IMG/VR virus record: IMGVR_UViG_3300023174_003901
Location: 136,247 to 200,246 of that record
Direction: 5' to 3' (one strand)
Length of the DNA: 64,000 nucleotides
Source of the DNA: a virus
Lineage: Duplodnaviria > Caudoviricetes
Part shown: positions 839-52,471 of the stretch, in pieces
Layout: each line of letters begins with the position of its first letter
Numbering within the stretch: position 1 is the first letter of the stretch
Translations under genes and position numbers: made by a program
The notes under the pieces: generated by a model
What the model saw: the letters and a program-made list of their open reading frames with translations, nothing else
Database searches by the model: none
Told to the model about the DNA's origin: nothing

Positions 839-2914
839 TTATGATTGGATGATTTGTTTCAACAACGCTAGACGGCTTTCGCGCACAGGTGCTTTTGGTT
901 GCTGTTGTTGCTTGGCTTTTTCTTGTGCTCGGGCTTTTTCACCCACACGCTTAACCATGTCCTGATATTTTTTACCATAGTCGGCTTCTTTAGGTGGCAC
1001 GTAGTCGTCCTTGGCTTCCGGCAATACAGGATCCACATGCTTGCCTAAACGACTACGAATGTGATCTTTTTTGTCTTGGGTAGGAATAAGTTGTTGGACT
1101 GCACGAGGTCTATCTCCAGGCTTCCAATCTTTAACTTTGTTAATTTTATATCCTCTGCCAGGTTCCAACCCAAAAGTTTCTATGTCGCTTTTTGGCAGTC
1201 GAGAGCCAATGGTCACTGGCCCGTCTTCCGCCATGCCTTGCTTAATTGGAGGCAATCCTCTTAACTTGACATAAGCATCAAGAATATCGGATGCAAAATC
1301 TGTATCGTACATGAGCCAGTTTAATCGTTGACGACTTCCTAACTCTTGAATAGCAATGGCAAAAGCATATCGTTGCACTAAATTGTAAGAGGTAAGTTTA
1401 GGATGTTCGGCAAATACTTTTTCTGCTAAATCTTTCGCGTATTTACGGGCAAAAGAACGGCCAAAGCGTTCGCGAATTTTATCTGTTCTTTGTTGTGGAA
1501 TATTGTCTTCGCCTTCGTCCACACCTTGCTCAATCACATCAACACCGGCCTTGCTCTGCGGACTCAACATGCGTGTGATGTCTCTAGCATTGGCTTGAAT
1601 AATTTGCTTGCCAACTTCAACATTCTGTGGAGTAAGTTCTCTAGCCACTTTGTTAATTTTGTCAACGACAGGAAGCACTGGGCTTGGTCGAGAACCAAAC
1701 ATGCCTTCTTCCACGCCCTGGTCTTCAATCTGCATCGGATTCAAAGGATCATCTGTGTAAATAGTTCTTACATCGCTGCCTGCATCACTTAGTAATTCAT
1801 CAATCATGTCACTTACATCAGAATTATGCTGAGCCTGGAATCCGGCACGTTCACCTTGTGTGATATAAATCTTTGCTATTTTTGCTGCCTGATCTAGTTC
1901 AGACCTGCTGTAACCATCTTCGCCGCCAAACCTCTTGTAGTTGGCTAAAATTACTTTGCCTATCTCCGGTCCAGGGTCTGCCTTGGGCGCCGTCTTTTTG
2001 GCAATGCTAATGATTTGATCTAAATCCTCAATTTGATTTGTATTTTCAGGTGGCCCCATGCCTTGCCACACGTCTGAAACATATCCAGGTAATCCTGTGG
2101 TCTGTAAACTCTTGTTTATATCTACAAAAAATTTATTGATTTCCTTCACAGTCTTAACAATGTTTGTTGCAAGATAGGGGTAATTATTTGATGTGTATTC
2201 CTTTGCAGTGTCAAAGAACATTTCAGTAAAGCCCTGGCTTTGCCCAGAGTCAATTGAATCCCATCCATATTTTTTACCAATAGACATTAGTTGTTGTTCA
2301 ACTTGATCGGGAGTAAATTCTATTTTACCACTGAGAAATTGGTCAGGGTCGCCGATGTTGGTTGGTATTGGTTTGCCATTGCGGCTAACACCTTTGATTT
2401 TTTTTGACCCTTGCTCACTTGCAAAACTCACTGCTACATATCCAGTTACTGGAACATATTTAGGAGTTGATTTTTGTATGTTGCCCATCATCTTTTGAAA
2501 ACGTGGGTCGTCCGTTGGACCTTCCTCTACACCTTGCTCGTCTAGGCCACGATTGTGACGCCACTGACGAACGCTCTTGCCCCGGTCACGTGCGCTGCCT
2601 AGTTTGGGTCTTAGGTCGCCTCTTTTTTCAGTCACGTCTTGCTCGCCAAAGTCATCTGCCAACCGATCAAACACAATTTGTTCAATGCGTTCAAAGTCAT
2701 CGTCTGGATGGAGACCTGCGTCAATCACAACATCGTCATACATGTCTTGCACATATCGGCCAGCAGGAGTGTTGGCACTAAACAACTCATACAATGCGTC
2801 AAAGTCTTCGCGGGCCACAATGTTGCGCAGTTCCGCGTCAATTTCACTCATCACGCCTTCAGTCATGTCTTTTTCAAACACTTGGGGTAAGTTAAAAAAT
2901 TCGTTCAGTATCAT
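839..2914 (-). CDS. modular putative internal head (virion cargo) polyprotein
   Basis: 691 aa; leader MILNEFF; repeated linkers EQDVTE, EQGVEEG, DQGVEEG, EQGVDEG, KQGMAED. Confidence 0.6.
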   Translation of the reverse strand: MILNEFFNLPQVFEKDMTEGVMSEIDAELRNIVAREDFDALYELFSANTPAGRYVQDMYDDVVIDAGLHPDDDFERIEQIVFDRLADDFGEQDVTEKRGDLRPKLGSARDRGKSVRQWRHNRGLDEQGVEEGPTDDPRFQKMMGNIQKSTPKYVPVTGYVAVSFASEQGSKKIKGVSRNGKPIPTNIGDPDQFLSGKIEFTPDQVEQQLMSIGKKYGWDSIDSGQSQGFTEMFFDTAKEYTSNNYPYLATNIVKTVKEINKFFVDINKSLQTTGLPGYVSDVWQGMGPPENTNQIEDLDQIISIAKKTAPKADPGPEIGKVILANYKRFGGEDGYSRSELDQAAKIAKIYITQGERAGFQAQHNSDVSDMIDELLSDAGSDVRTIYTDDPLNPMQIEDQGVEEGMFGSRPSPVLPVVDKINKVARELTPQNVEVGKQIIQANARDITRMLSPQSKAGVDVIEQGVDEGEDNIPQQRTDKIRERFGRSFARKYAKDLAEKVFAEHPKLTSYNLVQRYAFAIAIQELGSRQRLNWLMYDTDFASDILDAYVKLRGLPPIKQGMAEDGPVTIGSRLPKSDIETFGLEPGRGYKINKVKDWKPGDRPRAVQQLIPTQDKKDHIRSRLGKHVDPVLPEAKDDYVPPKEADYGKKYQDMVKRVGEKARAQEKAKQQQQPKAPVRESRLALLKQIIQS

Positions 2915-3591
2915 TTGGCTTCTTCCACGTAGTCTGCACTAGAGTCTGGCTGCACAGCCGGACGTCTGGCACGGTATAGATTCACTGCCATCTCGGCTTC
3001 ATCTAATTCTTTGAAACTGGATGGCATGCTTCGAGTGCCATTGTGAATGGTAAACCCTCTGCGTTGATCGCCGTGTATCTCTAGTACTGAACCATCTTCT
3101 AGCGGAATAGTCTTGACAGGTGAACTTGCAGGCTCAGGAATGGTACTAACTTGGCCTTGTCCTGGACGCATCTCATCTACTTCAACATCTTCTTCTTGAC
3201 TGTCAGGATCTGTGGGATCATTGTCTTCAATGTCTCGAACTGCTTTGTCTTTGAGATCTTGATCTACTTTGACTTTGTCGGCCAACTGATCCAAATAGTG
3301 TGTTAGGTCTTTCTTGACCTTCGAAATCATGTCTTCTTCAATCTCGGACATGGTTTCTGCCAGGGGCATTTGCCCCACTTCTACATCATCACCAAACATG
3401 TAGCCAGCCGGGCTTGCTTTCCGATTGGCATCGCCGCCTAGTACAGGTCCTTGCTTGGGCATTTTGAACAGGGCCGGCATCTGTGGCACTGATTTCTGTT
3501 GTGCGTTCAAGCCTTTCTTGACTGTGGCGGGAGTTGTCTTTCCCTCAATCAAGTCCAAGCGTTGGAGGATGCTGTAGATATCGTCGCTCAT
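2911..3591 (-). CDS. acidic putative head-associated protein
   Basis: Start revised to 3591 (ATGA overlap with the dps stop); several [ILV]xE sites. Confidence 0.55.
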   Translation of the reverse strand: MSDDIYSILQRLDLIEGKTTPATVKKGLNAQQKSVPQMPALFKMPKQGPVLGGDANRKASPAGYMFGDDVEVGQMPLAETMSEIEEDMISKVKKDLTHYLDQLADKVKVDQDLKDKAVRDIEDNDPTDPDSQEEDVEVDEMRPGQGQVSTIPEPASSPVKTIPLEDGSVLEIHGDQRRGFTIHNGTRSMPSSFKELDEAEMAVNLYRARRPAVQPDSSADYVEEAK

Positions 3592-4028
3592 GCTCGTTCG
3601 ACTTTCAAGTAACTGGTCAGTTGCCAACGATATTTGCCATGAGCACTGAGTCGTTCTGCAATGAAGTTAGCAATACCTTGTTCGTTGGCGTCATTGGCTT
3701 CTGCAAAGCAACGATTCAACAAATCCAACATCTGATCATTGTTGGCCTTGAGTTCTTCTAACATGAGTCGAGCACGGGGAATCTTTGTCTGCCCTGAGAT
3801 CTCAGTGAGTTCGCTAAACCGCTCAAAACTTGCAGGCGAATATTCACCTAGGTAGCGGATGTATTCTGCTGTGGGATCAATGGCTGAGTAAGCATCTTCA
3901 TATATCTCTTGAAAGAACCCGTGGAGTTCGCTGAAGTCTGGCCCTTCTACATTCCAGTGGAAGCCATGGGCTTTCAAGTAGTAAGCAAAATTAGTTGCTA
4001 ATAGAATTTTTAAACTGTCCGCGAGCAT
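3588..4028 (-). CDS. dps: Dps / DNA-protecting ferritin-like protein
   Basis: KAHGFHWNVEGPDFSELHGFF...D..AEYIR ferroxidase signature; 146 aa. Confidence 0.92.
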   Translation of the reverse strand: MLADSLKILLATNFAYYLKAHGFHWNVEGPDFSELHGFFQEIYEDAYSAIDPTAEYIRYLGEYSPASFERFSELTEISGQTKIPRARLMLEELKANNDQMLDLLNRCFAEANDANEQGIANFIAERLSAHGKYRWQLTSYLKVERA

Positions 4029-4203
4029 TTTTGTTCCTTTTGTATTCCTGGGGCGTGTTAGGCGTCAGGTCCCTAGTATATTTACCACTTAACATTGATC
4101 CGCCTGATCTTGCGACCATGCCCAAGGGCTGTGCGATAGTGGCTATACTACCTGCACTTGAGGTGGCAGCAGACGAATTTTCCAGGATTTCACGTGCTCT
4201 CAT
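3991..4203 (-). CDS. small protein with capsid-targeting-like leader
   Basis: MRAREILE then S/A/G-rich segment; AAGGA SD. Confidence 0.55.
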   Translation of the reverse strand: MRAREILENSSAATSSAGSIATIAQPLGMVARSGGSMLSGKYTRDLTPNTPQEYKRNKNARGQFKNSISN

Positions 4204-4492
4204 GGGGATATATCCTTAACATAGTATTTTTTATTCTTGCACTGGGTGGGCCTGAATCCACACGCAGGTTTTTAACTGTTAATCGGGCTTGACTGGGTTC
4301 AACCAGTTCATAGCGTATGTCGTACTTGCCTGGCTCAGCATACACAGGAATCAACTCTTCCAAATACTGTTCCTGCCAGATGTACGTGCGTTCCACAAAC
4401 AGTTCGTTGCCCACAAATAATCTATACACAGGCGGCCGATCCTTCCAGTCACAGTAGACATCACACTTGATCATGACATGCTCGCGGCTCAT
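4190..4492 (-). CDS. hypothetical beta-rich protein
   Basis: 100 aa, translationally coupled on both sides. Confidence 0.6.
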   Translation of the reverse strand: MSREHVMIKCDVYCDWKDRPPVYRLFVGNELFVERTYIWQEQYLEELIPVYAEPGKYDIRYELVEPSQARLTVKNLRVDSGPPSARIKNTMLRIYPHEST

Positions 4493-6009
4493 TATTCGCT
4501 CTTGTTGCCCCAGTTGGCAGCACCTTTTTTACGACACTGAACCAAGGCTCCGGACGCATAGGCCGACGGCCATACTTTGTATCTGCTTTTTACTTTGTAA
4601 TAACAAGCATCTTGTTTTTCATTTATCATCAACTCACTGAACATGGGGCCGCCACAGTTGGGACAGTGTTGTTCCTGCACAGATTTATCCTTAAGGCCCT
4701 GCACCGCAGTTGTGCGTCGGGGATCAGGAGCAGGTGCAGTGTCGGCACTGGGCAAGAACTTGACTATTGATTGCTTGGTCAGTGGACCCAATACACCATC
4801 CACATCTAAATTGGCATTGAATTTTTTGTTCAGCATCTGTTGTATTCTGCGGATTTCGTCTGAATTCTTTTGGCCTAGTGTTTCGTTAACAAATTCTTGT
4901 ATGGTATCTTTTGCTACGTCTTGCTGACCTGGTAATGTATCAGAAACGGTTATCATATTTTCAGGAACTATTTGTACGGGAACGCGGCCTTGGTAGCCTG
5001 CTACTTGATAGGCCAGGAACCGGTGATTGCCATCTATTACAAAAAGTTGTCCATTATCGTTCCACACCAGCAAAGGTTTTAACACACCATTTTGTTTTAA
5101 TTCTGGTAAAAGTTTGTTAGTTACCCAATCAGCAATTTTAGGATCTTTCATTGATTTATGCTTTTCCCACATGCGCAATTTATTGAACGGTACCAAGGTA
5201 GACGGCAAACTTTTCTTGATGTTATCATCTATTGTGGCACCTCTATGATTGGTATACACAATCACTGGTTTTTGTTCTGACCCTTCTGCTACATCTTCAT
5301 TTTTCTTTTTGTTCTTTACACAGTTGGGATACCTTTTGCCAAACATGGTTTTCATGCCTTCTTTGTGATAGCCTTTCCAGCAGGCTTCTTCTAAATCCAC
5401 GCCCTCGTCAGTTTTCTTGTTGGCATTGATGTAGGCACGATACACCGCGGCTGCTGATGCCTTGCCGGCTGCCCGGGCACGTTGTTCCATGGCCACTGCG
5501 GCCTGTATCTTGTGTGCATGGCTCCGACCACTGTTGCGTATCTTTGCAACACTGGCACGTGCGTCTTCAACTGTGGCAAACTTCAAGCCAGTTATGGTGC
5601 CTCGAGGATTCTCATCTGTGTATAAATCACTATGTTTCTTTGAATCAGCAGGTTGCCCTGGTTTCCTAGCAATTCGTGGGCTTTCCGTCACAGGCCGTTG
5701 CCAGGCACGGGCCGGAACGTTAAGTGTTTTTTCCAAATGTTTTAGTGAAGCATTTGTCAACAAGTCTGTGCTGTCTCTACCGGGTTGATAATACCACTTG
5801 CCACTTTTGGTTTGTCTTAGCCCCATAATCTTTAAATCAAGATGGTTGAAACTGCGGCCACCTCGAGCCACATCAAAGAAGTAGAGTGTGTCAGCAGGGT
5901 TGGTCACTGATTCTGTCTTGGGCTTTTTGCCGGCCTTTCGCATGGCAATGGCAATAGCGGCCTGCTGTGCAGGGTTGGCTGCTTCTGAGAAGAAATCACC
6001 GAGTATCAT
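4492..6009 (-). CDS. modular polyprotein: basic mini-domains + ParB/Srx-like + peptidoglycan-binding-like + Zn ribbon
   Basis: Leader MILGDFFSE; PLLV...VIDGNHR; LDVDGVLGPLT; CPNC; linkers VTE/LEE/VAE/VQE/INE. Confidence 0.65.
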   Translation of the reverse strand: MILGDFFSEAANPAQQAAIAIAMRKAGKKPKTESVTNPADTLYFFDVARGGRSFNHLDLKIMGLRQTKSGKWYYQPGRDSTDLLTNASLKHLEKTLNVPARAWQRPVTESPRIARKPGQPADSKKHSDLYTDENPRGTITGLKFATVEDARASVAKIRNSGRSHAHKIQAAVAMEQRARAAGKASAAAVYRAYINANKKTDEGVDLEEACWKGYHKEGMKTMFGKRYPNCVKNKKKNEDVAEGSEQKPVIVYTNHRGATIDDNIKKSLPSTLVPFNKLRMWEKHKSMKDPKIADWVTNKLLPELKQNGVLKPLLVWNDNGQLFVIDGNHRFLAYQVAGYQGRVPVQIVPENMITVSDTLPGQQDVAKDTIQEFVNETLGQKNSDEIRRIQQMLNKKFNANLDVDGVLGPLTKQSIVKFLPSADTAPAPDPRRTTAVQGLKDKSVQEQHCPNCGGPMFSELMINEKQDACYYKVKSRYKVWPSAYASGALVQCRKKGAANWGNKSE

Positions 6010-6272
6010 GATTTTTTCCTCTTTGTAGACACATTGATGGCTGGGCCTGAGCGTTCAGGATTGGGATCTTGTTTGCGTTTGCGGCTAGCGGCACTTGCAC
6101 GACCTTTCTTGCCCAGTGAGTGTGCCTTGGAGGCAGGCAAGCACTTGGGTTTGCCTTCAGAATCTGATCCTCTGGCACAATCGCCGCGGATTTTACCATC
6201 AGGACCAAATCGTACCCATTTGTCTTTAAACCACTTGCGTAGGTTTTCGTTCATGAATTCATCGGCTCTCAT
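6006..6272 (-). CDS. small basic protein with capsid-targeting-like leader
   Basis: MRADEFMNE then NLRKWFKDKWVRFG...C..G....GKPKCLP module. Confidence 0.7.
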   Translation of the reverse strand: MRADEFMNENLRKWFKDKWVRFGPDGKIRGDCARGSDSEGKPKCLPASKAHSLGKKGRASAASRKRKQDPNPERSGPAINVSTKRKKS

Positions 6273-6296: not shown

Positions 6297-6767
6297 TTAC
6301 CTTATTCTGTGCAGTAGATAAACTGTGGTGTTGGCCATGTCACTGCGATCCAATCTATAACCCCAGGCCTGAGCATAGCGTTGCACCAGGCGATCATAGA
6401 GATTGCTTCGGCTCATGGGTTTCTGTCCAGGCTCAACATCTTTGTCGGCTGTGAAACGCAGGGTTTCAGGCTGTTCCATTTCTATGAATTGACCAATAGC
6501 GGTCAACACTGTGGCAAACACTCGCTGAGCATCACCGGCTCCGGAAATGTCCAGGCGATTGTCGCGCCAAAATTCAACTACCCAATCTTCATTGTCGGCC
6601 ACATCAGAATCAGTATAGAAATTGATTGTGAGATTGGTGCCATCTGGCAGTCGTGCTAAGGCATCATATCTAGGATCCTGTTCAGCACCGGGCTCGTCCT
6701 GATTGTTGTCCCAGTGAAATGCATAGGGTTGGTCAAATGCTTCTAAGATAATATCTGTGACCCTCAT
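6297..6767 (-). CDS. hypothetical protein with capsid-targeting-like leader
   Basis: MRVTDIILE leader; ATGA-coupled. Confidence 0.6.
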   Translation of the reverse strand: MRVTDIILEAFDQPYAFHWDNNQDEPGAEQDPRYDALARLPDGTNLTINFYTDSDVADNEDWVVEFWRDNRLDISGAGDAQRVFATVLTAIGQFIEMEQPETLRFTADKDVEPGQKPMSRSNLYDRLVQRYAQAWGYRLDRSDMANTTVYLLHRIR

Positions 6768-8206
6768 TTTTTCTTTGCCTTTGCTCTACCAGCCTTCATA
6801 TTGGCCAACCAGTGTGCCATGCGTTGCTTTTCACCTGAACTATTTTTAGCAGTTTTTCTCAGACTGCTTACTGATGCCTTGGTGTTCACACCTGAACGCT
6901 TGGCAAGTCCTTTGCGGCCAGGATTCTTGCCATCAGCAAAGTTTTCTGCTACACCTTGCTTGGGAATCAACAATTCAGGCATACGATACTCACTGACATC
7001 TACTGGATATGGCTGTAGTGATGCTTTGTATAATTCGGCATACTGTTGTTTTTCTTCGGATGTCTTGGCTCTGTAAAACTTGTTGGCAATGGCCATGTCG
7101 CCCACCAAAGTTCCTGGTGGAATTGAAATCTTTTTTGGACCATAGTATTTTAATTTGTCAGAATCTTTGTTGGTCAAACTGTAAAAGGTTGATTCCCATT
7201 TGTCCGGGTGCAAGGCATATTGTGCTGTTGTTCTTTCTGGCACAAACTCTGCAAGTGTATCTGCACCAGGATGAAATTTACCTAACTTGGATAAACTTAT
7301 AGCAGTATCATTGCTTTCGCCTTCCGCAACAACCGGTTTGACAGGAACATAGGCAGGCACACTGGTCATGCCTGCTTCTACCGCGGCTACAGCACGATGG
7401 TTGCCATCAATGATCCAACCCTGTGAATCAACCACAATGGGCATACTTTTTAACACTGATCCAATCCGTGGTATCAATTCTTGAACTTTGTCATTGTCCA
7501 CCCAGTTCACACGATTGTAAGGATCCGGTTCTTCGCCATCAGGATCCAAGTTCAGTTGTGACAAGGGAATACTCTTTAATTCCCACTCAGGATGATCAGT
7601 TATGCTGTATTCAATGTCAAATGCTTCTGGAGCATGAGCACGTTTGACATAATCAAGCACTTGGTCGGCCGCCATGGATTCTGTTATGCCTGGCCTGCTT
7701 TGTGCCACGGCCACATAGGCAGGACCAACGTAGCCATCAGGATACCGGGCAAAGTGTTGTATGGTTCTATGCCAACCTTCCAACAGTTCATAACCGTTGC
7801 CAAATTTAATTAATATTGCAGGTTCTCGACTCACACCGCCCTGTTGTATCAATGCCGCTTGTGTGGCATGTCTTTCAGCATCTTTGGGTATGCCCATACC
7901 CATGTCACTGGTGCCGCCTGCACGACCAATTAACTTTCGTTTGCTCTTCGGCTCAAACATGTCCATGGTAAACTTCATGTTGGGTACAAGTTGCCAAGGG
8001 TTGACATTAGGACTTAGTCCTGCATCTGCGATCATTTCGATAATTTCATCTTTGACTGCTCTACTATCAGTGGTGTAATTTTTATTTTTACCGCGACCTT
8101 TGTACAACCAGTCTTGCACAACATATTCTGGCCATGTGGGAACAATGCTTCGGATGTATTGATACATCCTGTCTCTGAGTTCTATTAAAAATTCACTTGC
8201 TCTCAT
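6764..8206 (-). CDS. modular polyprotein with two ParB/Srx-like domains and a basic C-terminal mini-domain
   Basis: MRASEFLIE; LLEGWHR and IIDGNHR motifs; linkers PGITE, PVVAE, KQGVAE. Confidence 0.7.
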   Translation of the reverse strand: MRASEFLIELRDRMYQYIRSIVPTWPEYVVQDWLYKGRGKNKNYTTDSRAVKDEIIEMIADAGLSPNVNPWQLVPNMKFTMDMFEPKSKRKLIGRAGGTSDMGMGIPKDAERHATQAALIQQGGVSREPAILIKFGNGYELLEGWHRTIQHFARYPDGYVGPAYVAVAQSRPGITESMAADQVLDYVKRAHAPEAFDIEYSITDHPEWELKSIPLSQLNLDPDGEEPDPYNRVNWVDNDKVQELIPRIGSVLKSMPIVVDSQGWIIDGNHRAVAAVEAGMTSVPAYVPVKPVVAEGESNDTAISLSKLGKFHPGADTLAEFVPERTTAQYALHPDKWESTFYSLTNKDSDKLKYYGPKKISIPPGTLVGDMAIANKFYRAKTSEEKQQYAELYKASLQPYPVDVSEYRMPELLIPKQGVAENFADGKNPGRKGLAKRSGVNTKASVSSLRKTAKNSSGEKQRMAHWLANMKAGRAKAKKK

Positions 8207-11200
8207 ATCATCACCGGCAACACTTCAATATCTGCACCTGGTGCAGGGGATAACGATCCTTGACGACGTTGATCCTGCAACCAAGTTTGTGCAATGCGAT
8301 TGGCATCTGCTTGATTGTTGCCTACACCACGGAAGCGCCATACTTCTTCGCCATCAATCATGACTCGCCACTGTCCACTAAAACTATTGCCAGGCGGTGC
8401 CGAACTGGCCTGATCTGTGGTGCCAAACAAGTCTCTGAATGAGTAATCCGTGTTGCGGCCATTGGTACGGTCCGGGAAGTTCTGTGCCACATCCATGGGA
8501 ACTTCGGGAATTTCCTGCTGTGCCGCAACTGGATTGAATATCACCTGCAGACTCAGTTGACGGGCATCAACACCATGTCTGCGGGCTGTGTCGTCTCGTA
8601 CCGCCAGGGCCTGATCCTGACTGGCACCACGTACGGTGTTGAGTGTCTCGTCAGTCTCACGATCCACTATGCGCCAGTCACGTGGAATTTGAGAAGGTTG
8701 AGGTCTGATCTCTTGGAATCCGTAGTCTTCAGTAGTTGTGGGCAGGCCAGCGGCTGCCAGCCACTCTCCATAAATTCTGTTGGCATCTCTGCGATCGTCA
8801 GCACGGAATCTAAACACAGGGTTAGTATTGAACCGATCCACAACTGCATAGTTGGCGTTGGTTGATTGACTTGGCAAGCCCAGGCGGTTCTCCATGTCGG
8901 TCTGTGTGCCTACGTTGGCCCCACTGCCTGTACCTCTAGTTCTCACACCGTAGAGATCGTGCCGTCCAGTGGAAATAAGTGCCATGGCTTGACGTTGTGC
9001 CGCGCCACGATCAGTTATGGGTTGTCCGCCCTGAAGAAGATTAACCGTACTGTTGCCAGTTTGTCTGTTGTAAACTTCCCAAGGCCCAGGTCCGGTAGGC
9101 CGCAAAGGGTTGGACGCGGCGTCTTGATCGGTATTACCGCTGCCATCCACAGGTCTAGCACCAAACAACAAGCGAGCATCTACTGTGCCTATGCCGTGGG
9201 GACCAAAATTGATATAATCATCTAATCTTGTGTTTACATCTGATTGATTGCGAGCAGAGAATTCAGTGTCGGGGACGGCCTCACCAGTGCGTCTATCGAA
9301 CAGTTCATAGGTTCCTGTGCCGGTCTGTGGTGCGCCAGGTTTGTCTGGTTGTTCATCGTAGGGCCGTAAAACTTCAGCATCCATTTGAGCCAGAGTGTTG
9401 ACCAAGAGTGGTTCGCCCCATTCTTTTGCAGCCTTCTGTTTGGCTTCTTCTTCTGAGGTAGCAACCACTTCCACTGTGTAACTATATTGGCCAGCATTCT
9501 TGCCGTATTTGTAAACTTTCCACCACATTTTTTGGCCGTCAGTCTTGCCACGTTTGATATTGCGTTGTAACTGTGCCTGTTTGATAAAACTACGCAGGGC
9601 CGCTTTGGGAATCTTGCCGGCCACATAGTCACTAAAGTACTTGATGGTGTCGTCATCTCGGTTGTTTTCAGTCAACATTTTGTAGAGTTTGGTCAGGTAC
9701 TCTTGACGATACATTTCAGGATTTAGTGCCGCACTCATGGCCACAGTAAATCTCAACAGAGTGTTTTCAATCTTGTCAAAATTTTCGTCCAACCAGTCGC
9801 CACCGGGTGAGCGGAATTCAATGTGTCCATCCTTGGTGTTGATTGATGTATACTTGCTGGTGATGCCTGAGTGTATGGCCTTGCTGGCCAACTGATCCAA
9901 GTTGCCCTTCATCTTGTCCAACAACTGGGCGGCATTGTCAGGATTGTCACGCACAGCCCGTTTCACAATGTCCAGTGCTGATTTGGCATAGGTGTTGCCA
10001 CTACGACCAAATGCATCCAGCACATATTTGTCACCCATGAGCAGGGCCAGTTTAACAAAGTCCAAGTTTTCTCTACTGTAGTCCGGCACAGAGATATTGA
10101 TGTGCAGGCCAGTTGAATCATTGGTGTAACAACCATACTCCTTGGCCCAGCGTTTGACTTTGTTCAAGTCGCTGAGTATTTCATCAATAGGCAAGGGTGG
10201 ACTCACAAACTCCAGGCCTTGATCGTTGGGATCATCTGGTTCCAGGCTGCCATCTGGTTCCACCACATATCGTATTTGAGTTGGGCTGGGACGGATTGTA
10301 CTGCCTGAGTGATAGTTGCCACTGGCTCTGACATCGCGACCAATGGCATTTTCAAACTCTTGTGCCACATCTTCAATGCTGGCTTCGCCACCGCTTTGGG
10401 GGTCGCTCCAGTGCGGCCAACTCATGCTGTAGGCATTTTCAATTTCGCTCATGTTACTTAGATCTGCACCATCCAACCAGTCGCTTTCGTCATAACTTTC
10501 TTGATTTTCTTCGCGGAACTCTTCGTAGGCTGTTTGATATTGATCACTCACAGGATCAGCATGAACATTGGCAGCATATTCTTCCAGGGCTTCTGTGCGT
10601 TCCAGGTCAGATTTTTCCTCTGGATTCCACTCTGACTCGTCTACGTTTTCTTTAACCCATTGATATATGTATTCCTCACCCCCACTGTCCCAGTCGTCGG
10701 AGATCTTTTGATCCAACCATTCTGTATAGTCGTTCCGCATGCTGTCACGCATCTCATCGCAACTGCGGCGACTGTTCCAGTCACCATCATAGAAAAAGTC
10801 ATATGCATCCTGTATGCTACGGCAACGTTGGTCGTAGTCGTAGTCGGGTTCCTGGTCGGCATCACCGCTGCCGCCTTCAACATTGGGCACAATCATTTCA
10901 AATTCCATACCGGCTATGGCGCCGGTCTTGGCAGCCTCTCGACGCAGGTTCTTTGAACCCATATTGATTTCAAACAGGTCTTGTTGTTTGAATTGAGCCA
11001 GTTCCTCTGCTAAACTTTCGTTTAGTTTGGCGGTCAACAATGCAGGACGACCTTGAGCGTCTGTTTGTAGTCCTAGTTTGTTGGCTTCTTTGCCCACAGC
11101 ACCTGGTCGAACGTCTCGAGTCAAGGCCATGATAAAGCGTGGATCACGGGCCTGTTTCTTTGTGGGAATGTATCCTGAGGCTTCCTCCAATGGCACATGG

Positions 11201-12300
11201 GCAAACATCTCAGGATGTTTCTCTGCCCAGTGACGCATGATGCGACCTGCCATGGCATTGGCTTCATCTTCATAGGGACTGCCTGTCTCTCCGGCATTGT
11301 CGGGTAGTTTTTGTTTCTCTGCTTGCTTGCGATGTGTAAACTCATGGGCCATGGTTCGCAGGATGTCTAGAGTGTGGCGGCCTGCTGTGGCCAAGTGTAG
11401 CACATTGTTTTCGGGCTCATATTGACCAAACGATCCTGTCTGTTCACTCCAGTCTGTGCTGGTATGCAATTCAATACGGGGTGATTTCTTGATACCCAGG
11501 TACTCTATACAACTCTGTGCAAACTGATTGATAGTGTCTTGTAGTCCATCTTCAGACTCTGTGGTAAAGCCATAAGTCACATGTGGCTTGGCACGTTCAT
11601 CAATACTGAGTTCTTGGTCCTTGGCAGCATTTCTGGCATCTACTAACTTTTGAATATAACCTTGTGTGCGCAACATCTTGAATGCAAGATTCTCAGGACC
11701 AAACTCGCCATGCTCATCAAGACCGCTTTGGCGTAGTTGTCGAATCTTGGCCATCAAATCAGCCATGACCGCATGGTCTTGAGTCTTGATAGCATCTTGG
11801 ATGCGTTGTTTTAAATCTTGATACTTGCTACGAGTGTTTTGATCCACAACATCAGCACGTTGACGACGTGGTACTTGAATCCAGTCGTTGCGGAGCAAAC
11901 TGTATTCACCTTGTGTCACATGTGGTTGGTCTACATCTTGCACATACAGTTCAACATCATAGCCGCCAATCTTGATGTTGTGCTGATTGTTATATGCGTA
12001 CTTTTTGGCATCAAACAATTCACGATATACCTCATCATTGGGTATGTCAACCACAAGGTGCAGGTCTATGTCTGAATTGGGGGTATATGTGTAAGCGGCG
12101 TTTGATCCGCTGAGTGTGATGTCTTTTAGATCGAGATCTTTCACGCCCAGTGTTGCACGAAAATCATCTGCAATTTTCATCAGTGCGTCACGCACTTGGG
12201 GCTTCAAATGCTCGTCCTGGCCCCATATTCGGGGGTTTAGACGAGCATTGAATTTTACAGCGTCGGAAAGTTTATAGCGGTCTAACTCATGGAGATTCAT
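8203..12300 (-). CDS. Pol-beta-like nucleotidyltransferase + HExxH metallopeptidase + putative amidoligase + C-terminal repeats
   Basis: GSNAAY...SDIDLH; AHEFTH; GMEFEM / EPDGSL / GLEFVSPP / TGLHINIS; 1365 aa. Confidence 0.75.
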   Translation of the reverse strand: MNLHELDRYKLSDAVKFNARLNPRIWGQDEHLKPQVRDALMKIADDFRATLGVKDLDLKDITLSGSNAAYTYTPNSDIDLHLVVDIPNDEVYRELFDAKKYAYNNQHNIKIGGYDVELYVQDVDQPHVTQGEYSLLRNDWIQVPRRQRADVVDQNTRSKYQDLKQRIQDAIKTQDHAVMADLMAKIRQLRQSGLDEHGEFGPENLAFKMLRTQGYIQKLVDARNAAKDQELSIDERAKPHVTYGFTTESEDGLQDTINQFAQSCIEYLGIKKSPRIELHTSTDWSEQTGSFGQYEPENNVLHLATAGRHTLDILRTMAHEFTHRKQAEKQKLPDNAGETGSPYEDEANAMAGRIMRHWAEKHPEMFAHVPLEEASGYIPTKKQARDPRFIMALTRDVRPGAVGKEANKLGLQTDAQGRPALLTAKLNESLAEELAQFKQQDLFEINMGSKNLRREAAKTGAIAGMEFEMIVPNVEGGSGDADQEPDYDYDQRCRSIQDAYDFFYDGDWNSRRSCDEMRDSMRNDYTEWLDQKISDDWDSGGEEYIYQWVKENVDESEWNPEEKSDLERTEALEEYAANVHADPVSDQYQTAYEEFREENQESYDESDWLDGADLSNMSEIENAYSMSWPHWSDPQSGGEASIEDVAQEFENAIGRDVRASGNYHSGSTIRPSPTQIRYVVEPDGSLEPDDPNDQGLEFVSPPLPIDEILSDLNKVKRWAKEYGCYTNDSTGLHINISVPDYSRENLDFVKLALLMGDKYVLDAFGRSGNTYAKSALDIVKRAVRDNPDNAAQLLDKMKGNLDQLASKAIHSGITSKYTSINTKDGHIEFRSPGGDWLDENFDKIENTLLRFTVAMSAALNPEMYRQEYLTKLYKMLTENNRDDDTIKYFSDYVAGKIPKAALRSFIKQAQLQRNIKRGKTDGQKMWWKVYKYGKNAGQYSYTVEVVATSEEEAKQKAAKEWGEPLLVNTLAQMDAEVLRPYDEQPDKPGAPQTGTGTYELFDRRTGEAVPDTEFSARNQSDVNTRLDDYINFGPHGIGTVDARLLFGARPVDGSGNTDQDAASNPLRPTGPGPWEVYNRQTGNSTVNLLQGGQPITDRGAAQRQAMALISTGRHDLYGVRTRGTGSGANVGTQTDMENRLGLPSQSTNANYAVVDRFNTNPVFRFRADDRRDANRIYGEWLAAAGLPTTTEDYGFQEIRPQPSQIPRDWRIVDRETDETLNTVRGASQDQALAVRDDTARRHGVDARQLSLQVIFNPVAAQQEIPEVPMDVAQNFPDRTNGRNTDYSFRDLFGTTDQASSAPPGNSFSGQWRVMIDGEEVWRFRGVGNNQADANRIAQTWLQDQRRQGSLSPAPGADIEVLPVMI

Positions 12301-12305: not shown

Positions 12306-12311
12306 TATTTA
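12306..12311 (-). promoter_or_regulatory. late-promoter-like TAAATA
   Basis: 5 nt before ATG 12300, no SD. Confidence 0.6.
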
Positions 12312-21128: not shown

Positions 21129-21848
21129 TTATAATCCGTATCTGCTTTTTACCGCATCATAATTTTGTGTGATTTCAATTGTGGATAGCGCACGATTATA
21201 AACCAACACTTGTGAAATTCTTGCTGTGGCAAATTCACCAGCATCTGGATCACCACCAACAAAAAACGGCATGGCAGTCACTCTCAAATCTGGTTGGTCA
21301 GCGTCTCTCAAGCCCACTTGTGTGCCATTCACATACATCTTCATGTTGGCTGTGCCGGCCTGTGTGCCATCGTAAATCACACATATATTCTGCCAGACAT
21401 TGAGTGTGAACAATTGGAATATTTCTGCAGGATACATTTCAAATTTTTGAGTGGTCAATTTGTAAAATCTAAGAAGGGTAGTTCCTCTATAGCCCATGAG
21501 AACAAAACTGTCTGAATTTCCTGTTGGATATGCCCAGATGTTCCAGGTAAATGCAGTGGCAGATGTTTGTATCGGCGTCTGATAGGTAAAACTGGTTCTT
21601 TGTGATCCAGCACTTCCAAAACTAAAATAACTTGCATCTCCAGCAGATGTAAATGTAGGACTGTTGACCAGTGTTCCGTTGTTGCCGTTGCCGCTGATGT
21701 CATTCCAGGCAGTGCCTGAGCCGGAATAACTGGAGGTCTGTCCGGCGTCAATATACACTTGTAACCCTGTGGTAACTATGTCAGGACCGGGAGTGCTTCT
21801 TACGGTGATTCCTGGACCTATGGTAATTCCTGGACCTATTACTGGCAT
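21129..21848 (-). CDS. LamG/concanavalin A-like virion protein
   Basis: GLQVYIDAG..SSYSGSGTAWNDISGNGNNGTL...VLVYNRALS..EITQNY. Confidence 0.85.
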   Translation of the reverse strand: MPVIGPGITIGPGITVRSTPGPDIVTTGLQVYIDAGQTSSYSGSGTAWNDISGNGNNGTLVNSPTFTSAGDASYFSFGSAGSQRTSFTYQTPIQTSATAFTWNIWAYPTGNSDSFVLMGYRGTTLLRFYKLTTQKFEMYPAEIFQLFTLNVWQNICVIYDGTQAGTANMKMYVNGTQVGLRDADQPDLRVTAMPFFVGGDPDAGEFATARISQVLVYNRALSTIEITQNYDAVKSRYGL

Positions 21849-21857
21849 GGTTTGTCC

Positions 21858-22622
21858 TTAAAACGGTACTGTTGCTGTTTGTGTCACTGTGCCATTGTTG
21901 GTCACAGTCTGTGTGCTCGATGTGTCTGTGGTCACTGCCGCGCCCAACATCAAGTACTTGGTGTTTGCGCCTGATGTGAGTGGTGCTGACGGTGCAGTGA
22001 TTGTGGCACTGTTGCTGTCATACACAGCCGCACCTGTAGTGATTCTTAGGTTGGTGATGTTGCCAGGCCAGTAGCCACCATAGTATCTGGCCACCCAGTT
22101 ATTGTCGCCCCAGACCTGACTGTCTGTTTGTGTACCGCCCGAAGGACTGCCGCCGCCTACGGCACCGGTTGCCCGTGTGCAAGTCACGTAGTTGGCAGTG
22201 TTGGAGAAAGTTCCAACCCACATGGTTTCCAAGTCAGTTGTGGCATTGCGATTCAGCACTATGTATTGCCACTGACCTATTTTAAATGTACCTGCTGACC
22301 AGGTGTAAGAGGGCTGATATCCACCGCCGTATCTGTCCAGGGTAATGTTGGAATCACTGGTGAGAAACATGCTCATGCCCACACTTTGATCAGTGCCTAT
22401 CAGTGCCCGATTGGAGAAGTCACCGGTGTTGTAGAACCAGCCTTCTATAGTAAATGCGCCGGCTGCCGGAGTCCACCCAGGAGTCATGCTGATATACTGA
22501 CTGGTTCCGTTAAACCCTAAACTACCTGCCAGGGGTGTGTAGAGATTGGGAGGATCTCCGCCCATAAAAATGCCGCCACCTATGTTGATTCCGCCACCAA
22601 TTGCTATTCCTGGTAATGCCAT
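21858..22622 (-). CDS. LamG/concanavalin A-like virion protein
   Basis: FTIEGWFY...WQYIVL...GNITNLRIT...YDSN. Confidence 0.75.
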   Translation of the reverse strand: MALPGIAIGGGINIGGGIFMGGDPPNLYTPLAGSLGFNGTSQYISMTPGWTPAAGAFTIEGWFYNTGDFSNRALIGTDQSVGMSMFLTSDSNITLDRYGGGYQPSYTWSAGTFKIGQWQYIVLNRNATTDLETMWVGTFSNTANYVTCTRATGAVGGGSPSGGTQTDSQVWGDNNWVARYYGGYWPGNITNLRITTGAAVYDSNSATITAPSAPLTSGANTKYLMLGAAVTTDTSSTQTVTNNGTVTQTATVPF

Positions 22623-22623
22623 A

Positions 22624-25547: not shown

Positions 25548-25555
25548 TATGCTAA

Positions 25556-25561
25556 TATTTA
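25556..25561 (-). promoter_or_regulatory. late-promoter-like TAAATA for the spanin-endolysin operon
   Basis: 8 nt before ATG 25547. Confidence 0.55.
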
Positions 25562-25568
25562 TCGTTGA

Positions 25569-25574: not shown

Positions 25575-25578
25575 CTTG

Positions 25579-33624: not shown

Positions 33625-34374
33625 TTATTTTCCAGCCACTGCCAGTGCGGCGCCTTTGTTGAAACTGGGACTCCAGGGACTGTTGGCCTGAACCAAACCT
33701 TTGCGCTTGCTCCAATTGTAGCCAGCACGATGTCCTGAGCAGTCCTTGGTACAGGTTGAGCCCAGGAACTGTAATTCACTCAATTGCTCACGTCCTTTGA
33801 TGCCAATGACCATTGAGCGTTGATACTCAGTTTCAGGATCTTCCAGGTCCCATGTGCCTGAATACAGTACTGATTCTAATGGATATGCCTGTAACAGTTC
33901 TTCAGGAGATTCGTATGCGTTTTGTTCCACAGCATCTCGTCCTTGCATGATCACCAGGGTGCCGTCAGGAATATTATCAAACCATCCGTGGTCAGCAATG
34001 TCGTTGATGCTGGTGTTTATGACTAGTCCGGGCTGTTCAAGTTGTCTGTAGTCTAGTTCATTGACATCAGCCTGCATGTGTTCCACACCTGAAATATTCA
34101 TATCTTGTTGCAATTGCTGACCAGTACGCAACCATTCGCCTCGTTGTTCTACATCCACAATTCGATCAATAGGCACGCCTGTTCTGCGTAGGATTGTGCT
34201 GAGATTGCTGTACCAAGAGCCCAGTATGTAAGCAACAGGTACTGATTCAACGCCCTGTTGTTCCAGTATCAATTTGAGTTCACGGGCCAGCCACAGTTTG
34301 CTGAACACCAGATCCGGCGTGTAACTGCCCTCTAAACTAGGGCCGCTGGATTCAAAGATATCACCCAGATTCAT
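33625..34374 (-). CDS. methyltransferase-like protein with capsid-targeting-like leader and basic C-terminal mini-domain
   Basis: MNLGDIFE; SKLWL; ILGSWY; D.N..; VINTS; LSE then FLGSTCTKDCSGHRAGY. Confidence 0.55.
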   Translation of the reverse strand: MNLGDIFESSGPSLEGSYTPDLVFSKLWLARELKLILEQQGVESVPVAYILGSWYSNLSTILRRTGVPIDRIVDVEQRGEWLRTGQQLQQDMNISGVEHMQADVNELDYRQLEQPGLVINTSINDIADHGWFDNIPDGTLVIMQGRDAVEQNAYESPEELLQAYPLESVLYSGTWDLEDPETEYQRSMVIGIKGREQLSELQFLGSTCTKDCSGHRAGYNWSKRKGLVQANSPWSPSFNKGAALAVAGK

Positions 34375-34803
34375 TTAGTTGGCCTTTTGCCCGCGATCTT
34401 TTTCAGTGATAGGACCGCCTACTACCCAGCCCGCACAGGTTCTGGTTCCAGCACATTTAAAGTGTAGAAAATTGCAGTAGCCAAGATCACTCAAGTTTAT
34501 TGTGGCCACAGCGTCTGCATGTTTTTCATCGCCTTGGATTCCTGACTCGATACACTTGCGCATACTGTCACTGGCATCAAACGCCGCACAGTTGCCGCAA
34601 AGCATGGTCTTTACAGTTTTTTCTGGCACCGCCCAACGCTTGGCAGCACCTGCCCAATAGTCGCCTGGCTCTAGTGGATTAGCCGGGCCGTAGTGATAGT
34701 CGTCAATGGCTGTTTGGCGATTTTTAAGATTTAAGGTGATATCATGCGTGGCAATAGGACAGCCCTTTTGCACCGCTTCCACAAGATTGATGTACTGTCT
34801 CAT
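34375..34803 (-). CDS. Cys-rich (CxxC...GYC...C...CxxW) protein with capsid-targeting-like leader
   Basis: MRQYINLVE; CGNC; GYCNFLHFKCAGTRTCAGW. Confidence 0.6.
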   Translation of the reverse strand: MRQYINLVEAVQKGCPIATHDITLNLKNRQTAIDDYHYGPANPLEPGDYWAGAAKRWAVPEKTVKTMLCGNCAAFDASDSMRKCIESGIQGDEKHADAVATINLSDLGYCNFLHFKCAGTRTCAGWVVGGPITEKDRGQKAN

Positions 34804-34811: not shown

Positions 34812-35726
34812 TTAGGCCTTTTTGGGCAATGCTTTGTAGTTGGATTTCTTGTCAGCGCGATTAAACTCTCGTGCTACTGATTGTTTGATGCCTACTTTGC
34901 GAGCAAACTCGGGATTGTGCGCAGCCGCTGCCATTGTGCGGAACTGTGCTTGGCTTGTGGACTTTTCATTCAAGTCGCCTTCGTGTACTCCGGTATCTGC
35001 CATAGCATGGCCCACAGCATGGCCGTGTGCTCCTCCGGCCACAGCACCCTGTGCCACGTGTCCTGCCGCTTGGCCAGCACGTTTTTGCCAATTAGGGTCA
35101 GGAGTAAAAGACTTTTTAATATTGTCCCATACACCTTCTGTTAAATCTTCTGCGGCCCATGAGACGTAACTATCGCCATTGATGTCACCAGCACGTATCA
35201 CAAACACGCCACCGTTGTCGTAGCCGCCTTCGTCTTCGCCAATTTCCCAGCCCATTTTTGCCAGTGCGGCTTCAATTTGCATTTGTGTTGCTTCGTCTCC
35301 GGCCCACCACATTCTAGCGTAGTTATGTAAGGCATCGTCTTCACCGCCACTGTCACCATCATCGGCTGCAAATTCATTTAGGCCTTCGCTCAAGTCCTCA
35401 TCTGAAAAGGCCATAAAATCATATGGTCCCCACTTTTGTCCTGTGCGACTGTCTATAGTGTCATCGTGATCACCATATTCATAGTAGTCATCACTGTAGA
35501 TTTCCACACCGTCAAAGTCACCATTGTAATCAATATGCAGTTTACGTGTTTTACCATCAGGACAAACAATGCCGCGATTTAGTAAACGTTCAACATCTTG
35601 TTGACTCTTGATACCTTTTTGCAGACTACCTGTGTCAAAGGTACCATTGTACCAGGCCGAGGCCAGGGCTTGGAAGTAGTTGCCTGAATCTCCGCCACCT
35701 GAGGGTGCAAATTCTCTCAGTCTCAT
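34812..35726 (-). CDS. modular acidic polyprotein with a basic C-terminal mini-domain
   Basis: MRLRE-FAP; LSE, LNE-FAA, LTE, VHE and LNE linkers. Confidence 0.6.
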   Translation of the reverse strand: MRLREFAPSGGGDSGNYFQALASAWYNGTFDTGSLQKGIKSQQDVERLLNRGIVCPDGKTRKLHIDYNGDFDGVEIYSDDYYEYGDHDDTIDSRTGQKWGPYDFMAFSDEDLSEGLNEFAADDGDSGGEDDALHNYARMWWAGDEATQMQIEAALAKMGWEIGEDEGGYDNGGVFVIRAGDINGDSYVSWAAEDLTEGVWDNIKKSFTPDPNWQKRAGQAAGHVAQGAVAGGAHGHAVGHAMADTGVHEGDLNEKSTSQAQFRTMAAAAHNPEFARKVGIKQSVAREFNRADKKSNYKALPKKA

Positions 35727-36856: not shown

Positions 36857-36862
36857 TATTTA
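36857..36862 (-). promoter_or_regulatory. late-promoter-like TAAATA
   Basis: 5 nt before ATG 36851. Confidence 0.6.
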
Positions 36863-51542: not shown

Positions 51543-51561
51543 AGATCTGTATCCTCTGCTG

Positions 51562-51567: not shown

Positions 51568-51595
51568 GCGGCAGAGAAGGTCTATGTGTTTTGGG

Positions 51596-51916
51596 CTACA
51601 CGGAAAAACTGCTTCCGCAACCGCAGGTGGTTTGTGCTTGAGGATTGTTGATTACAAAACTACTGCCCATGATATCTTCTTTGTAGTCAATGGTAGCACC
51701 CTGCAGGTACTGCATGCTCATGGAGTCGACCACTACCTTCACCTCTTCGTAGGCAAAATCAAAGTCATCTTCGTTTTGCATTTCGTCAAAAGTGAATCCA
51801 TAACTCATGCCCGAACAGCCGCCACCCTGCACAAACACTCGGAGCATGAGATCAGGGTTGCCTTCTTCAGCCACAAGTTCACGAAGTTTCTCAACTGCGC
51901 CAGATTCTAGTTTCAT
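51596..51916 (-). CDS. erpA: A-type Fe-S carrier (ErpA/IscA/HesB)
   Basis: [17 protein letters not shown]...[13 protein letters not shown]...[11 protein letters not shown]. Confidence 0.92.
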
Positions 51917-51928
51917 AATGTACCTACT

Positions 51929-52471
51929 TTATAGTCTATCAGAACAAACGTCCCAATTGATGATACGCCAGATATTGTCCAGGTATTTTTCTTTTTCCCA
52001 CTGGTAGTCCAAGGCCCAAACATGTTCCCACCAGTCAATAAGTACGCATATATCTGTACGCACTGCATGATTGCGAATGGTTTTGATTTCACCACCGGTG
52101 CTCAAATACACCCACCCAGAACCTTGGATCTTCATTGCGACTTTTTTAACTTCATCCTGGAAGTTTTCGTAACTCTTGAACTTGCGTTCAATCAGTTCCA
52201 GTACAGCACCACGTGGGCGGTTGTTGCCTTTGGGAGGTTGCAATTGTGGAAAAAACTTGTTGTGTAAGAAACTGCCAGCACGATTGAAATCTGAATCACC
52301 TTCGCCGGCGTTGTAGCGTTTGGCATAGCCCTTGGCCAAATGCTCATAATGATAATTGATACTGTCTCCGCTGAGCACAGGATTTAGGTCGTCTTCACCG
52401 TATGGCAAAGGGATTGTTTCCAATTTGGCTGGACGGGTTGTTGCTTCTAATAAATCGATGTGTTTGCGCAT
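51929..52471 (-). CDS. sod: Fe/Mn superoxide dismutase with a capsid-targeting-like leader
   Basis: Start revised to 52471; LPY...L.P...YHYEH; LHNKFF; GSGWVYL; DWWEH..ALDY. Confidence 0.88.
   Translation of the reverse strand: MRKHIDLLEATTRPAKLETIPLPYGEDDLNPVLSGDSINYHYEHLAKGYAKRYNAGEGDSDFNRAGSFLHNKFFPQLQPPKGNNRPRGAVLELIERKFKSYENFQDEVKKVAMKIQGSGWVYLSTGGEIKTIRNHAVRTDICVLIDWWEHVWALDYQWEKEKYLDNIWRIINWDVCSDRL

Follow-up and report, generated by a model that had tools for sequence, protein, structure and literature searches.

Short leaders resembling the T4 capsid-targeting sequence on largely unrelated proteins of an uncultured lake jumbo phage

The last 64 kb of the 200,246-bp IMG/VR record IMGVR_UViG_3300023174_003901, referred to here as the window, contain tightly packed operons in which a series of largely unrelated proteins start with short N-terminal leaders reminiscent of the capsid-targeting sequence (CTS) of phage T4. 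Positions are those of the window unless they are marked G000, which refers to the whole record. The record has a G+C content of 44.5% and a completeness of 58% (CheckV), while relatives with the same genes measure 340-354 kb, and the region is present in lake and freshwater metagenomes of 14 studies and in no RNA run. Identity of the major capsid protein with its counterparts in PA5oct, Vibrio phage 2.275.O and Rak2-type jumbo phages amounts to 61-65%, and judged by these genes the phage is a member of an uncultured, roughly 350-kb PA5oct/Rak2-related jumbo phage lineage of lakes. Neither a megablast search of cultured phages with 12.4 kb of the cargo region nor a tblastn search of cultured phages with the 480-residue cargo protein gave a match; thus, the cargo modules seem to be confined to uncultured relatives.

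The original prediction listed eleven such N-termini, all of which were confirmed at their start codons on the minus strand. Most starts of the leader genes overlap the preceding stop codon (ATGA). A strict leader pattern is found at 8-10 of the 232 genes of this genome, with about 0.3 expected. To avoid circularity, a position-specific scoring matrix (PSSM) was trained solely on leaders of related contigs and then applied to this genome, where seven starts reached at least 8 bits against an expectation of 0.36: 8206, 4203, 6272, 6767, 34374, 35726 and, outside the window, G000 100638 with the leader MRFKEIFTE. Across 80 related IMG/VR loci with a total of 1.09 Mb, 195 of 3846 first ATGs (5.1%) carry the motif, compared with 24 of 8471 internal ATGs (0.28%), and the enrichment is 15- to 20-fold or more over internal ATGs and all internal positions. 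A sequence logo of 133 unique leaders revealed the consensus M-[RK]-[AILV]-x-[ED]-[FLI]-[ILVF]-x-E, followed by S, A, G or T. Position 7 is hydrophobic in 115 of these leaders, which the search pattern did not demand; position 3 is likewise constrained beyond the search pattern, and the codons vary synonymously. In 125 of 126 non-identical leader proteins of relatives with a locatable cut site, the third residue before the cut (P3) is I, L, V, F or M, and the residue behind it (P1') is mostly S, A, G or T. The leaders are 5-16 residues long.

With respect to PSSM score and cut site, six of the eleven N-termini are strong members of the family, four belong to variant subclasses and one, at 12300, is doubtful. 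The subclass MIL-x-[DE]-FF comprises 6009 (4.6 bits) and 2914 (3.7 bits) and recurs in relatives, and the subclass M-R-x-x-I-[ND]-L-[VLI]-E-A, with 34803 (2.5 bits) and 52471 (0.2 bits), is kept in all orthologues examined; six orthologues of the 142-residue protein, for instance, retain M-R-x-[YFL]-[IL]-[NK]-[LI]-[IV]-E-A. Among the strong members, the 70-residue protein has 14 homologues, and in all of them M-[RK]-x-x-E-I-x-E precedes the corresponding module. The N-terminus at 12300 has a PSSM score below 0 and no Glu cut site and is conserved as a part of its protein family in nine relatives; its membership is therefore doubtful, and by its sequence it is probably not a member. The predicted hydrophobic-x-Glu ending is found in ten of the eleven, with 35726 read as MRLRE/F (slashes mark predicted cuts) and 2914 as a 14-residue leader, but not in 12300. 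A further candidate, missing from the original list, is the 226-residue protein of the cargo operon, whose N-terminus is conserved in relatives as MSNDIRSILDRLATVEG.

That the domains behind the leaders are unrelated holds for nearly all of them; the exception is the pair 6009 and 8206, which share a ParB-like domain (30% over 113 residues, BLAST), the one domain shared among 13 carriers of this genome in pairwise BLAST comparisons. Single-linkage clustering had lumped 125 leader proteins together because of mosaic module sharing in relatives, and the within-genome comparison spoke against homology among the carriers of this genome. A secretion or membrane signal was also rejected, since the leaders are charged and not hydrophobic. 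It had been asked whether the motif is equally common on replication proteins; in this genome, none of the replication genes carries it, and it is confined to operons and genes headed by TAAATA-N4-6-ATG.

Table 1. Leader genes, internal sites, promoter-like motifs and head genes. Positions are those of the window unless marked G000; slashes mark predicted cut sites.
Feature	Position	Strand	Leader, N-terminus or site	Remarks
TAAATA late-promoter-like motif	12306..12311	-		5 nt before ATG of 1365-residue gene; heads operon 12300 to 839
1365-residue multidomain 'polyvalent'-type protein	8203..12300	-	MNLHELD (12280-12300)	first gene of cargo operon
480-residue ParB-like cargo protein	6764..8206	-	MRASEFLIE (8180-8206)	best PSSM, 21.3 bits
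Internal site in 480-residue protein	6944-6958		QGVAE/N	followed by 59-residue basic C-terminal module
C-terminal module of 480-residue protein (59 residues)	6764-6943		starts NFADGKNPG	isoelectric point (pI) 11.9
156-residue acidic protein	6297..6767	-	MRVTDIILE (6741-6767)	PSSM 16.1 bits; mature start AFDQPYAF
88-residue protein	6006..6272	-	MRADEFMNE (6246-6272)	PSSM 17.5 bits; mature 79 residues, pI 10.9
505-residue modular ParB-like protein	4492..6009	-	MILGDFFSE (5983-6009)	PSSM as in text
Internal site in 505-residue protein	5284-5298		EDVAE/G	plus SVQE/Q module boundary
70-residue protein	3991..4203	-	MRAREILE (4180-4203)	PSSM 18.7 bits; mature 62 residues, pI 10.6
Dps/ferritin-like gene	3588..4028	-		Pfam Ferritin 66.9 bits; context only
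226-residue protein	2911..3591	-	MSDDIYSILQRLDLIE/G (3544-3591)	candidate 16-residue leader
691-residue polyprotein-like gene	839..2914	-	MILNEFFNLPQVFE (2873-2914)	14-residue leader
Linkers in 691-residue protein	2522-2536, 1706-1720		QGVEE/G
Linker in 691-residue protein	1514-1528		QGVDE/G
Linker in 691-residue protein	1226-1240		QGMAE/D
TAAATA late-promoter-like motif	36857..36862	-		before 202-residue gene starting at 36851; heads gene row to 33625
304-residue acidic protein	34812..35726	-	MRLRE/F (35712-35726)	short leader; PSSM 8.1 bits
142-residue protein	34375..34803	-	MRQYINLVE/A (34777-34803)	variant leader
249-residue protein	33625..34374	-	MNLGDIFE (34351-34374)	methyltransferase fold, residues 11-197
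Internal site in 249-residue protein	33775-33789		EQLSE/L	followed by appended 48-residue module (33625-33774)
(A)TAAATA late-promoter-like motif	52476..52481	-		4 nt before start codon of superoxide dismutase gene; conserved before orthologues
Fe/Mn superoxide dismutase, 180 residues	51929..52471	-	MRKHIDLLE/A (52445-52471)
Kinase-like protein, 190 residues	G000 100638 (outside window)		MRFKEIFTE	invariant GxGxxxxV, Lys, Asn and Asp residues
Further (A)TAAATA motifs	G000 25664, 27453, 29597, 48641, 100643			before head, tail and cargo genes
Small protein in gp67 position, 72 residues	G000 25441-25659		MILNEIYD
Highly acidic protein in gp68 position, 297 residues	G000 24425-25318		MSKNRFEQLIE/Y
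Peptidase_S77 (PF03420)	G000 23906-24349			87.9 bits
Major capsid protein	G000 21427-22638		MSEQLLE/S...ALLE/G

In the superoxide dismutase (SOD), a leader stands in front of a known fold. It matches Sod_Fe_C with 74.2 bits, which is above the Pfam cut-off, and Sod_Fe_N with 24.8 bits, just under the cut-off of 27 bits, and it aligns with solved FeSODs over residues 18-179. Homology to cellular SODs begins at residues 18-20, which correspond to residues 4-5 of the latter, so that about 15 residues are added in front; judged by this alignment, the leader is an add-on before a cellular fold. The motif x-R-x-x-[IL]-[DN]-L-[VIL]-E-A-[ST]-T is kept in 80 phage orthologues, and the enzyme is 77-90% identical in more than 200 contigs. 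An Ile or Leu codon is aligned with the Met of MRKHIDLLE in about half of the orthologues (L112-L191). Some of these have an ATG-GAA just upstream, which would result in the leader M-E-[IL]-R-x-x-L-x-L-V-E (most frequent upstream contexts); others have no ATG of this kind upstream. The shifted starts have moved by two codons, and the TAAATA-N4-ATG spacing is retained.

The other carriers differ widely in their predicted functions. The first gene of the cargo operon encodes a Pol-beta nucleotidyltransferase domain (Pfam NTP_transf_2, 22.4 bits) and an Amidoligase_2 domain (29.4 bits), both above cut-off, and a zincin is suggested by the motif HEFTH read in its sequence. The ParB_N match of the 505-residue protein is weak (16.9 bits, below cut-off). 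The AF2 model of the 249-residue protein has a core with pLDDT above 90, flanked by a disordered leader and a disordered module behind EQLSE, and its top 50 Foldseek hits are all methyltransferases (E about 1e-8); according to this model, the protein has a class I S-adenosylmethionine-dependent methyltransferase fold. Its Glu8 is invariant in seven homologues though their leaders differ. The Cys/Lys-rich module of 48 residues behind EQLSE is missing from six homologues and, on this comparison, is a recent addition to the methyltransferase-fold protein through a linker. For the kinase-like protein, Foldseek returned protein kinases only, with weak scores (E about 1e-3, TM about 0.4, model pLDDT 70); its homologues were retrieved by an exhaustive search of representatives, and a word-indexed search gave one near-identical match. 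Eight cargo proteins had no match in Pfam, even at an E-value of 5. Three small modules are very basic (pI 10.6-11.9), like the internal proteins of T4, and several of the small, very basic cargo proteins probably bind DNA. The cargo had been described as enzymatic, which is appropriate for about half of it but not for these small basic members. In relatives, leader proteins carry cytidine-deaminase, MafB19-type deaminase, Glyco_hydro_19, LysM, Pterin_4a, GP88 and DUF domains.

The cargo operon also contains the Dps/ferritin-like gene, whose product starts with MLADSLKILL and lacks a leader. The first 38 nt of this gene coincide, in a different frame, with the end of the 70-residue leader gene. 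A fusion of both genes by frameshifting was considered and rejected, since 14 of 14 homologues of the 70-residue gene stand alone.

The boundaries of the modules link the leaders to sites within larger proteins and provide the strongest support for the capsid-targeting reading. For four conserved modules, relatives show two settings, immediately after a leader or immediately after an internal linker, and x-x-E precedes the module in every case. One of these is the 59-residue NFADGK module, which occurs in 50 distinct contexts, including MRANEFIIE/, MRAKEFITE/, QGVAE/, TPGMAE/, KDVDE/ and GLNE/, and is always preceded by Glu; the NLRKWF, AFDQPY and small Ser/Ala-rich modules follow the same Glu-preceded pattern. 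Homologues of the 156-residue protein follow a leader or the internal sequences GVTE, GITE or VWE, the module of the 88-residue protein is located inside larger open reading frames (ORFs) behind VIEE, ELEE or DIEE, and that of the 304-residue protein, which itself has the internal sites EDLSE/G and EDLTE/G, is found inside a 980-residue ORF of a relative behind KNLDE/F. The leader of the 691-residue protein is joined to a different body in the related locus L044, and the module following it sits behind GVAE in the related locus L003. In a systematic test, 124 leader-defined modules were found in 140 distinct internal contexts of relatives: the residue before the module (P1) is Glu in 102 of them and P3 is V, L, I or M in 95, P4 and P5 are often G or Q, and several of the exceptions are alignment shifts by one residue. 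P1 and P3 are thus kept at the junctions, and P2 varies freely. Cargo proteins of this genome contain 3.0 linker patterns per 1000 residues and its other proteins 0.30, a ten-fold difference. BLAST segment boundaries in the 480- and 505-residue proteins coincide with linker sites, and AF2 models show compact domains with disordered leaders and linker flanks. A hydrophobic-x-Glu sequence at module boundaries is what a protease site at every boundary predicts; it also accounts for the single-linkage clustering of most leader proteins of the lineage, even though those of this genome are, one ParB-like domain aside, not related to each other. From these sequences, leaders and polyprotein linkers appear to be interchangeable and to represent the same cut site. 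Across dozens of contigs in which the attached proteins are entirely different, the NFADGK module is 85-100% identical, and with few exceptions no other module follows it in the ORF. It might serve as an abundant internal protein that binds DNA, or else act as a second, C-terminal packaging signal itself.

The cargo genes have a promoter-like element in common with structural genes. TAAATA-N4-6-ATG precedes the genes for the portal, the 72-residue core protein and tail proteins, as well as the 1365-residue gene, the head of the gene row ending at 33625, SOD and the kinase-like gene; in these head, tail and cargo genes, a gap of just 4-6 nt separates (A)TAAATA from the start codon. If the motif acts like the -10 element of T4 late promoters, the mRNAs would be leaderless or nearly so, leaving no room for a Shine-Dalgarno sequence.

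A gp21-like prohead protease had been proposed to lie elsewhere in the genome, and indeed a Peptidase_S77 gene was found in the head module (Table 1). Two related records encode this protease as well; one of them, a 354-kb relative that is 98% complete, has about 8-10 leader genes in addition, several with the TAAATA promoter-like motif. The head module follows the gene order of T4: portal, 72-residue protein, acidic 297-residue protein, S77 protease, a coiled scaffold-like protein of 366 residues and major capsid protein, with the PHROG families portal, protease and major head protein in corresponding order. In cultured relatives, the small core gene behind the portal gene has a canonical leader, namely MKINDIITE in PA5oct gp150 and MKLVELFE in Vibrio phage 2.275.O; since the core protein bears this sequence, the cargo leaders look like copies of a head-core N-terminus. 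According to its annotation, PA5oct gp150 was detected in virions by electrospray ionisation tandem mass spectrometry. Two further in-frame pattern matches of PA5oct do not belong to virion proteins, so that the support from this phage comes from gp150. The major capsid protein has two hydrophobic-x-Glu sites within 19 residues, as has the PA5oct capsid protein gp154 (MSNRLFE/S...ALTE/G), which suggests a capsid propeptide much shorter than the 65 residues of T4 gp23.

The closest parallel is T4 itself. The capsid targeting sequence of this phage was reportedly described by Mullaney and Black in 1996. In the T4 record, IPII and IPIII start with MKTYQEFIAE/A, and each of gp67, gp68, gp21, gp22 and gp24 has an initial stretch of 6-13 residues that terminates in hydrophobic-x-Glu. 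For packaging, the CTS suffices, and it is all that the internal proteins of T-even phages have in common; the propeptides of IPI, Alt and gp24 are related to it and are removed by gp21 (PMC9026906, PMC3012670, PMC5694885). As in T4, a short peptide located at the N-terminus of otherwise unrelated proteins has hydrophobic-x-Glu at its end and a small residue behind it, starts with M-[KR] and contains the core E-F-[IL]-x-E, and the protease family, the order of the head genes and the presence of several small basic cargo proteins agree; with only 9-10 residues, however, common descent is not provable. In contrast to T4, the N-terminal half of the leader has one residue less, and at least 12-14 carriers are encoded in 58% of a genome, whereas T4 has a handful. 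Furthermore, the cargo includes recognisable enzymes, the site doubles as a polyprotein linker with modules moving between stand-alone and polyprotein forms, and the carrier is a relative of PA5oct and Rak2 of roughly 350 kb and not a T-even phage.

Three other systems share some of these features. In phiKZ, 201phi2-1 and SPN3US, a gp21-related protease cuts many head proteins after Glu, several times each, and the propeptides are likewise thought to be targeting signals; however, most of them exceed 100 residues, are not conserved between proteins and are cut at S/A/G-x-E (PMC5694885, PMC10052503). The leaders described here are not of this type, as they have 5-16 residues, are conserved across the cargo and have a hydrophobic P3, and the head genes are T4/PA5oct-like. 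The polyvalent proteins of Iyer, Burroughs, Anand, de Souza and Aravind (2017) are highly mosaic, and their packaging and delivery together with the DNA have been predicted (PMC5512222). Like them, the cargo includes large proteins of probable late genes stringing together ParB-like, zincin peptidase and Pol-beta nucleotidyltransferase domains, and the 1365-residue protein fits this type by its NTP_transf_2 and Amidoligase_2 domains, its HEFTH motif and the late-promoter-like motif upstream. PMC5512222, however, proposes autoprocessing by the zincin, without an N-terminal address tag and without amidoligases in its text, whereas the domain boundaries found here have prohead-protease-type sites and the same modules also occur as leader-tagged single genes. 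The Dar proteins of phage P1 are also enzymatic or defence-countering proteins, which are loaded into the head, in some cases N-terminally processed, and injected (PMC9024508, PMC5512222); by description, P1 uses an ordered incorporation based on protein-protein interactions rather than a short shared leader and belongs to another head-assembly lineage. A search of the literature found no description of leaders that are interchangeable with linkers within polyproteins. The CTS and its proposed use by T4-like phages for the loading of varied proteins have been published, and the apparent interchange of leader and linker is new here; it is specific to this case, together with the enzyme-rich cargo and the PA5oct/Rak2-related lake jumbo lineage.

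On balance, the leaders probably function as T4-type capsid-targeting propeptides. The generalised CTS that had been suggested for this phage gains support from the S77 protease, the match of the motif, the absence of leaders from replication genes, the SOD add-on and the conserved junctions, and none of the computational checks that might have overturned it did so; targeting, cleavage, retention in the virion and injection are modelled on the biology of T4 (PMC9026906, PMC3012670, PMC5694885). The cargo genes would be transcribed from late promoters late in infection, and the N-terminal peptide of 5-16 residues would bind each cargo protein to the scaffolding core while the prohead is being assembled. 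The S77 protease of the gp21 type, active only inside the prohead, would then cut after the Glu of hydrophobic-x-Glu and thereby remove the leader. This site, in the typical form (Q/E)(G/D)-V-x-E before G, would also join the modules of the 480-, 505- and 691-residue proteins, which could be loaded as one unit and subsequently be cut into separate mature modules. These modules would stay in the filled head, and most of them would probably be expelled into the host with the DNA. The delivered set would comprise the SOD, the methyltransferase-fold, kinase-like and ParB-like proteins, the nucleotidyltransferase-zincin-amidoligase protein and several very basic proteins of 60-80 residues; by analogy, the phage probably delivers an enzyme kit with its DNA. 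It is evenly balanced whether, in this abundant lineage, any module flanked by hydrophobic-x-Glu enters the prohead and is set free there by the S77 protease, be it behind a Met-leader taken over from the head-core protein or within a polyprotein; this would amount to a plug-and-play cargo system with modules passing freely from single genes to polyproteins and back.

Several observations weigh against the capsid-targeting interpretation. The motif patterns were partly set after the data had been seen. The 1365-residue protein lacks a convincing leader, about a third of the internal junctions have a P3 that is not hydrophobic, and the Glu preceding each module could be read as a part of the module instead of a cut site. 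The PA5oct genome has no expanded leader family (eight pattern matches versus six in the control). The gp67-like protein has Asp at the expected cut position, where relatives have Glu; in T4, Asp at this position permits loading and blocks cutting (PMC9026906). Finally, injection, unlike packaging, has no sequence signature at all.

There is an alternative in which the leader remains a capsid-targeting propeptide but the idea of an injected arsenal is dropped for most members. In this case, the cargo would be packaged and would work in the virion, where the basic modules condense or neutralise the DNA and SOD, perhaps together with the Dps-like protein, guards it against oxidative damage. The extremely basic nature of three mature modules (pI 10.6-11.9), the presence of a Dps/ferritin-like gene in the cargo operon and the sunlit lake-water habitat agree with such a role, and the conservation of SOD in over 200 contigs at 77-90% identity resembles that of a housekeeping enzyme and not an arms race. 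However, the Dps-like gene has no leader, the internal proteins and Alt of T4 are injected (PMC3012670, PMC5512222), and the rapid shuffling of modules among relatives is typical of proteins involved in host conflict. Moreover, no obvious capsid substrate exists for the kinase-like, methyltransferase, deaminase, ParB-like and nucleotidyltransferase/amidoligase modules. A function in the virion is plausible for SOD and the basic modules and less so for the kinase, methyltransferase, deaminase and ParB modules, and as an account of the cargo in general it is rather unlikely. It has also been considered that hydrophobic-x-Glu serves processing only, by S77, the 1365-residue zincin or a host protease, and that the polyproteins act in the infected cell without being targeted to the prohead. 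Autoprocessing of polyvalent proteins by zincins was proposed by Iyer et al. (PMC5512222), the 1365-residue protein has the HEFTH motif, and sequence alone cannot part cutting from targeting. Nevertheless, positions 2-7 of the leader are more constrained than a cut site from P3 to P1 needs; in the CTS of T4, too, targeting is specified by residues 4 and 7 (PMC9026906). The leader resembles the N-termini of prohead-core proteins, and the cargo genes share their promoter-like motif with head genes. In addition, proteases of the gp21 type act inside assembled proheads in T4. Processing without targeting is quite improbable. The leaders might, on the other hand, not be a protein signal at all but reflect the initiation context, PeSL-like microhomology shuffling cassettes as in T4-like phages, or chance and composition. 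The leader codons are indeed biased (AGA for 58 of 72 Arg, GAA for 68 of 74 Glu at position 9), and modules are clearly shuffled among relatives. Microhomology would be compatible with protease sites but leaves the N-terminal Met-leaders unexplained, and the enrichment of 15- to 20-fold or more over internal ATGs and positions is at odds with chance. Furthermore, conservation follows residue classes (R/K, E/D, F/L/I) with synonymous and conservative variation, P2 is free while P1 and P3 are kept, and the upstream DNA is not conserved. A nucleotide-level or chance origin is thus very unlikely and deserves hardly any credence.

If this plug-and-play reading holds, leader and linker together would be a computational read-out of the injected protein set across hundreds of uncultured genomes, a set with kinase-like, methyltransferase, deaminase, SOD, ParB-like, peptidoglycan-hydrolase and amidoligase modules. 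Injected proteins act before phage genes are expressed and are prime candidates for counter-defence and host take-over, yet such proteins are very hard to find in uncultured phages. An address tag with a cut site would reveal them from sequence and point to new enzyme activities in the first seconds of infection, and it would offer short natural packaging signals for the loading of foreign proteins into large capsids. The apparent interchange between single genes with a leader and polyproteins would, moreover, account for the assembly and maturation of polyvalent proteins.

Leader-like starts are also found in two cultured jumbo relatives. Sinorhizobium phage Phosso (PV764938) has 19 leader-pattern starts versus 7 in a reversed-pattern control, and Xanthomonas phage XaC1 (OR258281) has 18 versus 9; examples such as MRASELFE and MRLSEIINE are located near the capsid gene. 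Both phages may be usable as laboratory models for the leader.

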